Positions 1 through 3,000 of a stretch of DNA of 64,000 bases are shown piece by piece. Source of the stretch: Escherichia coli. GTDB taxonomy: Bacteria; Pseudomonadota; Gammaproteobacteria; Enterobacterales; Enterobacteriaceae. A program made the position numbers. The first letter of the stretch is position 1. Each line of letters starts with the position of its first letter. Location of the stretch: assembly GCF_044324785.1 (NCBI RefSeq), contig NZ_CP172127.1. One strand, given 5' to 3'.

Positions 1-3000
1 TTCATTACATCACTCCGGTGAATACAAATCTAATAAAGCGTCCAATGTTATTTCCGGAGCACTTCATCTTACATGTTTCTAAAGAATCATTAGACCAGTC
101 AGGGCAAGATTACGAAAGCCCGCTCCCCGCAAGGACTGACGCGAGATAGTTTCTGTCCATGGCTGCTTTTCGCATCTTACGTCTTAACCCTGCCTTGAAT
201 ACCTTATCATTCGTCAAAATATTAATAGCAATGTGCCGTATCCCTGAAAATAATTCTGCTGCGTTTCCTCTTCTTATTTTGCAGTCGTCTTCATTCATTA
301 CCACGTCCAGACGCCAGTGCAGCTTATTCTCCACGTGCCAGTGGTTTCGGATTGCTGTGGCGAACTTCTCAGCGGTTAAATCAGCAGAACTGATATAATA
401 TCTGACCGTCATTTCTGGCTCTTTCTTTTATTCTGCTATTATTGACCGAAAGGAGACTGCCACGCATAATTTTTCAGTCCTTTCTATTCAAATGTAAAAT
501 CAATAAGTTCATCAGCGACATCGCAAACAATATGAAGACGGATTTCTTCTCTGCCGTGACTCTTTTCACTAATTGCGTAACTGTCATGCTCTGGATTATT
601 TAATTCTTTCAGCGGAAATGTTTCCTCAAAGGCTTTATTCAACCGCCCCTGGTTTCCTTTTACAGCGAATAAGTAATCACCACCCTGTTTTTGTATCTTC
701 TCTGCAATATCTTTCTGGCAACCTATCGCATCAGTTGTGATGATTTTCCCTTTAATATACAAAATGTTAAGAAGTTCAGGGATAGCTGTGATCTCATTAG
801 ATTTCTCATCCGTCCTGATCTGCCCCAGGACCAGAATGTGCATTGTTGAGAACGCACTAATAACATGAATCGCTCCCCTTCGGCGACTCTTATCATAAGA
901 GTGTCGGAGCATTTTTCCATCAATTGCAATGACGTCTTTATCATCTGAAGAATGGCAGTCACGCATCCAGTTAATAAAGCACTCATGAAATTTTGCAGGG
1001 CTGATACAGGATACAACTCTGGCAATGGTATCGTGGACAGGAATACCATTTTCAAAATCACCGTATTGTTTTAAAAAATCGAGATGTGTTTCCCCAAAAT
1101 CCTCTATATCTTCCCAACCTTCTGCACCCGAAATAACGGCACAAATAGTCAACAGTAGAATATCCGATAATTTATGTTCCACTTTCCAGGCTTGTCTGTA
1201 ATCGGGGATAATAGAAATATGCTCCATCAATTTTTTAAGTTCCATTTTGTTCTCCTTAATTATGTAAGGAGTATTTGATCATGTATAAGCAATAAAAAAC
1301 AGCTTTAGGTAATGAGGAATATCTCAATTTTCAAACATAAAATGCGAATTATTTAGTACAAAAAAGCAGCGTTACGTGATCTTTCCCTGGCATGTCATTA
1401 GATGAACCAGTTATACAACCCTCGGAACAGAATCGAGGTCCTAAAGACGGACCAAAAGCGTTTAAACAACTATGTATTGAAAATCCATTACGATTATAAG
1501 TTCCTGTATTAACTGACGGTACTAATCGTATGCCGTCAGGTTTTCTATTGCTTGCTCCCGGGTCATTAACATTCCAACTCCATAGGCCTTGAGGTATTGG
1601 CCCTCTATTTATAAATGTGTACAACGGGGATTATTTTTACATTGCATATTATTACCAGAAGCGACTGGAATACTAAGCACATCATAAAAATTATCATCAC
1701 CTGGTATATCTGAAACACACGAAAGCATACCTAAAGTTATGCTGTATAAACAGGTGGCTAATCCCAAGGGGATCGATTCCAGAAATCGGGTTCAACGGAT
1801 ACTGATAAAAATTCCACCTACCTTCCAGCCCAATCGGAGCCTGAGTGTTATACCGCCCCTGCTGCGGTTAATGTTACCGATAATAGTTATAGTACAGCCC
1901 TGATTCATCATCATACTACTGCTGCGGCAGTCTGATGAATTATTGCTTTTACGGATTCTCCTTATTCTTCCTTCTATCCATTCGCTTTAGCTTTTTGAGA
2001 TCTTGAAGTTTGCTCTTTGCATCAATATTACCGTTATTTACAGCGAATTCCATCCAATAAATAGCTTTATTCAAATTATAATGTTCTGATAATATTGGAT
2101 TTGTATCCGATAAAAAAACCCCATAATTAAACTGCGCTGTAACATTCCCCTGAGATGCTGATCTTTCTAAGTATCGCAATTGTTTGTAAATGTTATTTTT
2201 AGTAAAGCAGTAATATTGATATAGTCGAAATGATGCCTCTGAATCACCATGTTGTGATTTATACTTCAGTTTCATCAACTTTTCTTCACTTAAATCATAG
2301 GTCATTGCTGTAGACCCCATCATACTTTCGTTTTGTTTTATTTTCACATCAGCACCATGCAATTGAAAAATAAAAGAAAAATAAAAAAATAGTAACAAGC
2401 ATGCTTTCATACATCTACAACCTATCTTATATCACTGGGTTTTTCTGGCGTACCTTGCATATTAGAAATGGGGTGCCCAGATGGCCCATATGTTATCCAA
2501 TTACCAAGGTCTTTTGTTGTTATAGCCATTAGATCCTTATTTGAATTAAGGTTCGTTGGTGCTGTTAGCACTGTATCCATTTTTAACTTACCATTAGTTC
2601 CTCGCCCCCACCACGTCCATAGCGTGTCAGGTCCTATTACATTTGTATGTAACTCTTTAGCTAATTGGCTAGCAAATGAATTTTGTCCTTTACCTGTATT
2701 ACAAGAAAATAACCAAACTGTCATCCCATCTTTATAATTCCCATCAAATTTAATTAGATATGCTAGATCTTTAGCTGTCATGATACTGCGCGTTGCGGAT
2801 TCAATAGATGTGGGGGTACCATGCCCCCCGATTGTGAAAACGCCTGGGATATTAATCTCATCAGCTACAGAATGGATAAGATCACTTTCGGGGTATAAAT
2901 TTATATCAACCAAACCTTGCGGATCTACATTTATGACCGGATTCAACGGATACTGATAAAAATTCCATCCCCCCTTCAGCCCAATCGGATCCTGAGTGAT

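Follow-up and report, generated by a model that had tools for sequence, protein, structure and literature searches.

A full-length H-rpt insertion sequence with a multiply disrupted transposase gene in the Escherichia coli Rhs locus between priA and yiiX

The DNA considered here, called the window throughout, is a 64-kb stretch of an Escherichia coli genome that opens inside an Rhs element located between rpmE/priA and yiiX. This is a known Rhs site: Jackson et al. 2009 (PMC2935791) list it as locus 11, yiiX-priA, and the genome paper on E. coli W (PMC3032704) as b3936-b3937. Read along the minus strand, the gene order is main rhs, a Sel1-like ORF, a core fragment, a Tlde1-type toxin tip, an H-rpt insertion sequence (IS), an rhsC-type toxin tip and ybfB. 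These features, and what each assignment is based on, are as follows.

2422..6651, minus strand: main rhs gene, an intact 1409-aa ORF (ORF list; PGAP 'RHS element core protein')
1949..2410, minus strand: Sel1-like 153-aa ORF, the presumed immunity gene, directly 3' of the main rhs gene (ORF list; PGAP label of the ortholog, 'sel1 repeat family protein')
1697..1915, minus strand: Rhs core fragment of an orphan module, a pseudogene with an internal stop (PGAP coordinates transferred from orthologs)
1390..1624, minus strand: orphan Tlde1-type Rhs toxin tip, truncated by the left end of the IS at codon 116 (of 135) (EC488 homology; weak Pfam Tlde1_dom match)
100..1389, minus strand: complete H-rpt (ISEc1-like, ISAs1-family) IS of 1290 bp (ends of the paralog matches and limits of the flank homology)
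5..99, minus strand: 3'-terminal 31 codons of an rhsC-type toxin tip, directly next to the right end of the IS (alignment to the 3' end of K-12 rhsC)
5..3, minus strand: ybfB start codon (alignment to K-12 ybfB)

The Pfam families RHS_repeat, RHS and TEN_YD-shell match a product identical to that of the main rhs gene. Its toxin tip, consisting of the 176 C-terminal residues after DPQGL (2425..2952, minus strand), has no Pfam family match, and the Sel1/TPR matches of the neighbouring 153-aa ORF (1949..2410) are all below the Pfam threshold. In the orphan module, orthologs are 100% identical to the window over the core-fragment stretch (1697..1915), and a DPLGI motif lies in the ORF 1697..1795. 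The Tlde1-type tip shares 88% aa identity with a 135-aa tlde1-domain protein that is intact in E. coli EC488, and ends exactly at ...SSNDM; the Imm57 immunity gene is absent. On the other side of the IS, PGAP labels the rhsC-type tip in orthologs as 'hypothetical protein, missing N-terminus' and places ybfB after it. The window begins 99 nt past the IS, and the Rhs element continues beyond the window start. In matching assemblies it extends for another ~3.5 kb, via ybfB, a 452-aa orphan Rhs fragment and two 92-aa ORFs, to yiiX. The preliminary description of this DNA had taken the H-rpt to mark the distal part of the Rhs element; the IS does lie in the distal array, but it is not where the element ends. 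Its remark that the Rhs element is decaying is apt for the IS and the orphan toxin tips that adjoin it, but not for the main rhs gene with its intact ORF.

Within the IS, the ORF list holds two minus-strand ORFs, each beginning with ATG.

484..1245, minus strand: ORF1, 253 aa, transposase codons 1-253 followed by a TAG stop (ORF list, Pfam, NCBIfam)
110..412, minus strand: ORF2, 100 aa, transposase codons 279-378 (M279 to S378) followed by a stop (ORF list, Pfam, NCBIfam)

Their starts are 833 nt apart, and 833 mod 3 is 2, so the frames differ; the gap from the stop at 484 to the ATG at 412 measures 71 nt. In Pfam, ORF1 carries DDE_Tnp_1_assoc (E=3.8e-34) and covers positions 3-130 of the 200-position DDE_Tnp_1 profile, and ORF2 takes up the same profile at positions 140-200. 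The NCBIfam model NF033564 (transpos_ISAs1), which has a cut-off of 70 bits, matches ORF1 with 286.2 bits over profile positions 1-221 and ORF2 with 97.2 bits over positions 250-314, so that both are above the cut-off. A tblastn search with K-12 YhhI as query returned a frame -2 match to residues 1-258 and a colinear frame -1 match to residues 258-378, the two overlapping at residue 258. The codons of ORF1, the stretch between the ORFs and ORF2 sum to 253 + 25 + 100 = 378, the length of the intact transposase. ORF1 is preceded by an AAGGAG ribosome-binding site 6 nt 5' of its ATG, and ORF2 carries a conserved block of ten residues. The agreement is far beyond chance: a single ISAs1-family (H-rpt / ISEc1-like) transposase is split into ORF1, its N-terminal part, and ORF2, its C-terminal part. 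What the preliminary description had said of the family, of the different frames of the two ORFs and of a combined length of about 378 aa, normal for an H-rpt protein, is thus borne out by the Pfam and NCBIfam matches, by the ORF list and tblastn, and by the codon count, respectively.

The IS that contains these ORFs can be delimited by its relatives. Matches to paralogous H-rpt copies across E. coli genomes run from query position 562 to 1851, equivalent to 1389 and 100 in the window. The resulting 1290 bp is 1 bp under the 1291 bp of intact paralogs, an expected length that was taken from the paralog alignments. Both ends carry a terminal inverted repeat.

1369..1389, minus strand: left terminal inverted repeat, CAGGGAAAGATCACGTAACGC (from the sequence; conserved upstream of yhhI and ydcC)
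100..120, plus strand: right terminal inverted repeat, CAGGGCAAGATTACGAAAGCC in plus-strand reading (conserved at the 3' ends of the yhhI and ydcC elements)

These 21-nt repeats agree at 16 of 21 positions, and both start with CAGGG. Members of the ISAs1 family in ISfinder are ~1.2-1.5 kb long and have short imperfect terminal inverted repeats that start with CAGGG. The length of 1290 bp and the CAGGG starts place the window copy in this family, as do the two ORFs that score above the NF033564 cut-off. Its assignment to H-rpt / ISEc1 follows from 95-96% identity over 100..1389 to yhhI-/ydcC-type copies, for which the PGAP name is ISEc1, and from its position downstream of the rhs gene 2422..6651, among orphan toxin tips. 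ISAs1-family members have a single uninterrupted transposase ORF, which in H-rpt has ~378 codons; the window copy has none, making it a defective member. No further H-rpt copy was found in the 64-kb window by tblastn with YhhI. An Rfam scan of 1..2500 gave one sub-threshold chance match, to a plant miRNA, and promoter- and terminator-like sites in 1..2000 occur in numbers at chance level.

The disruption of the transposase gene was mapped by alignment to intact K-12 yhhI and ydcC, to K-12 ybfD and to the ortholog of E. coli TUM14771. Three lesions are found.

484..486, minus strand: lesion 1, TGG>TAG at W254, changed base 485 (alignment column 840)
between 473 and 472, minus strand: lesion 2, 1-nt deletion of the G of AAG (K258), a -1 frame shift (alignment column 853)
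428..430, minus strand: lesion 3, CAA>TAA at Q273, changed base 430 (alignment column 917)

The 253-aa ORF is ended by the stop codon of lesion 1 rather than by a frameshift. Codon 254 is TGG in yhhI and ydcC as well as in the orthologs of TUM14771, 19A14 and E26. The TAG lies 11 nt upstream of the deletion, the site of which reads CTGAA-AAATTA in the window and CTGAAGAAATTA in intact copies, and the TAA of lesion 3 is in the frame of the downstream ORF, i.e., the frame created by the deletion. Alignment to yhhI and ydcC therefore pinpoints the indel that the preliminary description had supposed, in codon 258. The indel is present and the gene is inactivated, as had been claimed, but the idea that a single indel did this does not stand next to a TAG, a deletion and a TAA. 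Repair of the indel alone would not restore the gene, since the two stop codons would stay. The transposase gene is a pseudogene with three independent lesions, and the analysis yielded no evidence against pseudogene status.

Several other explanations of a split transposase can be weighed against these lesions. Some IS, such as IS1 and those of the IS3 family, express two ORFs as one transposase via programmed ribosomal frameshifting, and the two frames of the window copy could be connected by a -1 slip at a site that holds an A5 run (CTGAAAAAT, window 477..469). The path is not free of stops, however: translation would meet an in-frame TAG (486..484) 11 nt ahead of the site, and past it the downstream frame is closed by a TAA (430..428). 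The intact relatives (yhhI, ydcC and the EC488 copy) encode a single 378-aa ORF with AAG-AAA at the site instead of overlapping ORFs, and G-AAA-AAT is not a canonical X-XXY-YYZ slippery heptamer. With stop codons on either side of the shift site, programmed frameshifting is refuted by the sequence, and we give it practically no chance.

Equally close to nil is the probability that the gene is intact and owes its frameshift and stops to mistakes in sequencing or assembly. The deletion does adjoin a homopolymer run, where such mistakes typically occur, but both nonsense changes are substitutions and not errors of homopolymer length. An exact-sequence look-up of the 253-aa ORF1 product retrieved seven NCBI assemblies, and all three lesions are present in 7/7 of these independent assemblies, with an identical 1290-bp element in six. 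The deletion is found in three complete RefSeq E. coli genomes as well. The proviso attached to the preliminary description, an error at the junction of the two ORFs, is thereby disposed of.

It is also exceedingly unlikely that ORF1 and ORF2 stem from separate partial IS copies brought side by side. Such arrangements are known, as the RhsC element of K-12 has tandem partial H-rpt copies (ybfQ, ybfL, ybfD), and the differences in the window's IS form a mosaic pattern. Against this, the window copy is colinear end to end with single intact elements, with a 1-nt gap as the sole interruption; its inverted repeats are at the expected distance; and no segment is duplicated or missing, codons 253-279 included. 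Two full-length copies may have recombined in the past, yet one element would remain. Colinearity with yhhI and ydcC across 1290 bp, broken by the single 1-nt gap, thus upholds the earlier view of one element and not two.

The order in which the lesions arose can be read from their distribution. Lesion states were scored in 15 loci, and in the resulting table the intact paralogs have none of the three lesions, the orthologs of TUM14771, 19A14 and E26 (three complete RefSeq E. coli genomes) have the deletion alone, and the seven assemblies have all three. The deletion, being shared by orthologs in other E. coli, is older than both stops. W254>TAG and Q273>TAA arose after it and are private to the window's lineage. 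Segment 400..520, which carries the lesions, is absent from 5426 complete E. coli genomes: over its 121 nt, no match there exceeds 96.7%. The 253-aa product, too, is rare in its exact form, at 7 contigs; the exact 100-aa C-terminal product occurs on at least 1000 contigs. At the level of the protein family, many of the 38,559 proteins in the 90% cluster are truncated, and decay of the H-rpt transposase family is commonplace. The copy in the window is a defective IS of an ordinary kind, which is already known in the sense that public annotation of the orthologous loci says so: PGAP labels the orthologs of TUM14771, 19A14 and E26 "ISAs1 family transposase, frameshifted".

Comparison with these orthologs also reveals how unevenly the region has diverged. 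The best alignment found, to E. coli 19A14, has 98.5% identity over the first 18 kb of the window. Relative to this genome, the window has 25 differences within the 1290-bp IS and 0 in 658 nt of unique flank (1..99 and 1390..1948). The differences inside the IS are themselves not all of one type. In codons 70-128, 14 are clustered and 12 of these are synonymous, while 7/9 in codons 166-286 are non-synonymous, both stops included. This pattern would fit a conversion tract received from another, selected H-rpt copy combined with neutral decay in place, and we infer that both may have contributed. No donor of the divergent tract 850..1050 was found among the 5426 complete E. coli genomes, the best match being 97.0%. 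Beyond the IS, identity to 19A14 is 98.0% for the rhs core and 96.4% for priA, such that divergent blocks stand amid near-identical sequence, and the region has the appearance of a recombination patchwork.

The priA block can be described in its own right. The gene (7154..9424) has 96.4% identity to 19A14, the adjoining rpmE region (6652..7153) 100%, and cytR and ftsN >99%, so that this housekeeping gene forms a recombinant block with sharp borders. As for the closest relatives of the window, no complete RefSeq E. coli genome matches 1..12000 at 99% identity or more, and 165/5426 cover at least 80% of it. The lineage of the window is consequently unrepresented among complete genomes. It is found in draft assemblies, among them GCA_053151395.1, which is 99.86% identical to the window over 9 kb.

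The junctions of the IS with its surroundings provide a second line of information. On the left flank, homology to the intact Tlde1 tip stops at 1390, and on the right, homology to K-12 rhsC starts at 99. The IS thus joins two unrelated truncated Rhs toxin tips, one Tlde1-type and one rhsC-type. No target-site duplication brackets it, with a Tlde1-type flank on the left and an rhsC-type flank on the right. A candidate for such a duplication was considered, namely the 8-mer TCTAATGA, which occurs exactly 5 nt outside each IS end (1402..1395 and 94..87, minus strand). The left copy lies within ACTGGTTCATCTAATGA and the right copy within ACTGGTCTAATGA. Each toxin tip carries its copy natively, and the pair was rejected as a product of insertion. 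No empty site was found. At the EC488 locus that holds the intact Tlde1 tip, the gene order is different and an H-rpt lies upstream of the tip. Each of the two junctions of the IS is present in 148/5426 complete E. coli genomes, and among these 5426 genomes no intermediates with one junction alone were seen (148 vs 148). An IS-associated deletion may have produced this structure, as may recombination between two H-rpt copies, each inserted into a different toxin tip.

Taken together, it is very probable that 100..1389 is a full-length H-rpt copy in the Rhs array, that its transposase gene is a pseudogene which acquired the deletion first and the two stops later, and that the copy is immobile and acts as a passive recombination substrate. 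In this sequence of events, the 1-nt deletion in codon 258 came first, and W254>TAG and Q273>TAA followed in the window's lineage. A full-length transposase can no longer be made from this copy. Of the catalytic domain, the N-terminal 253-aa product would retain about two thirds, in addition to DDE_Tnp_1_assoc, and it would be without the conserved C-terminal block of ten residues. In IS4-like DDE transposases, a C-terminal block supplies the catalytic glutamate, and by analogy the block missing here should do the same. With its transposase gene broken, the copy is not expected to mobilise itself in cis. Transposition has never been observed for any H-rpt copy (PMC3032704). What would be left is a 1.3-kb repeat open to homologous recombination, and its remaining role may be a passive one, in which other genomic H-rpt copies recombine with it homologously or exchange sequence with it by gene conversion. 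This role is suggested because unrelated tips are joined without a target-site duplication and because divergence within the IS is far above that of the unique flanks.

The truncated protein itself deserves consideration, since the 253-aa ORF keeps a good ribosome-binding site and the protein may therefore still be made. Truncated transposases of other IS families act as inhibitors or regulators, and the 253-aa protein could in principle be retained as useful, e.g., as a DNA-binding inhibitor or regulator of intact H-rpt copies. ORF1 is intact, its AAGGAG site is strong, the whole DDE_Tnp_1_assoc domain is kept, and K-12 YbfD is exactly 253 aa long owing to a parallel TGG>TAG at the same codon. 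The distribution of the allele argues the other way, with the TAG on just those 7 contigs, the lesion segment absent from the 5426 complete genomes, and the TAG missing from the orthologs, in which the frameshift breaks the gene at another point. Differences from the ortholog beyond the putative conversion tract are, moreover, mostly non-synonymous (7/9 in codons 166-286), and according to PMC3032704 H-rpt transposition has never been observed. Retention for a function is on balance very unlikely. A broader proposal, in which the codon-254 truncation is kept as a trans-acting H-rpt inhibitor or regulator, and/or the dead IS is maintained as a portable block of homology through which orphan Rhs toxin/immunity modules are shuffled, has a slim chance of being correct. 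Homology-block shuffling would fit the joining of the Tlde1-type and rhsC-type tips and the conversion-like mosaic divergence. The preferred reading continues to be that of an immobile pseudogene copy with a passive role.

These findings have some practical consequences. The locus is best annotated as a single ISAs1-family pseudogene, 110..1245, with three lesions, and not split into two genes. As lineage markers for the Rhs locus between rpmE/priA and yiiX, one can use the shared deletion and the private stops. Finally, an IS bridging two truncated toxin tips is a further example of rearrangement and decay in the downstream arrays of Rhs elements.

The window copy can be compared with several known H-rpt copies. 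K-12 yhhI (H-rptB) and ydcC (H-rptE) belong to the same element, with ~95-96% nt identity over 1290 bp, and share with it the inverted repeats, the upstream region, the ribosome-binding site and the 378-codon layout. Like the window copy, they are situated 3' of an rhs gene amid orphan toxin tips. They differ from it in having an uninterrupted 378-aa ORF where the window copy has a 1-nt deletion and two stops. The orthologs of TUM14771, 19A14 and E26 occupy the same chromosomal locus, with identical unique flanks and the same deletion in codon 258, but are without the TAG and the TAA of the window and have 25 differences from it inside the IS. K-12 ybfD, an H repeat-associated putative transposase of the RhsC element, has the same TGG>TAG at codon 254 and a 253-aa product. 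Unlike the window copy, it has lost most of the 3' third of the element through an internal deletion just after the TAG, which left the last ~50 bp. It also lies at another locus, and the marker bases flanking its TAG differ from those in the window. Because these flanking markers differ, the TAG in ybfD and that in the window copy would have arisen in parallel and not by conversion.
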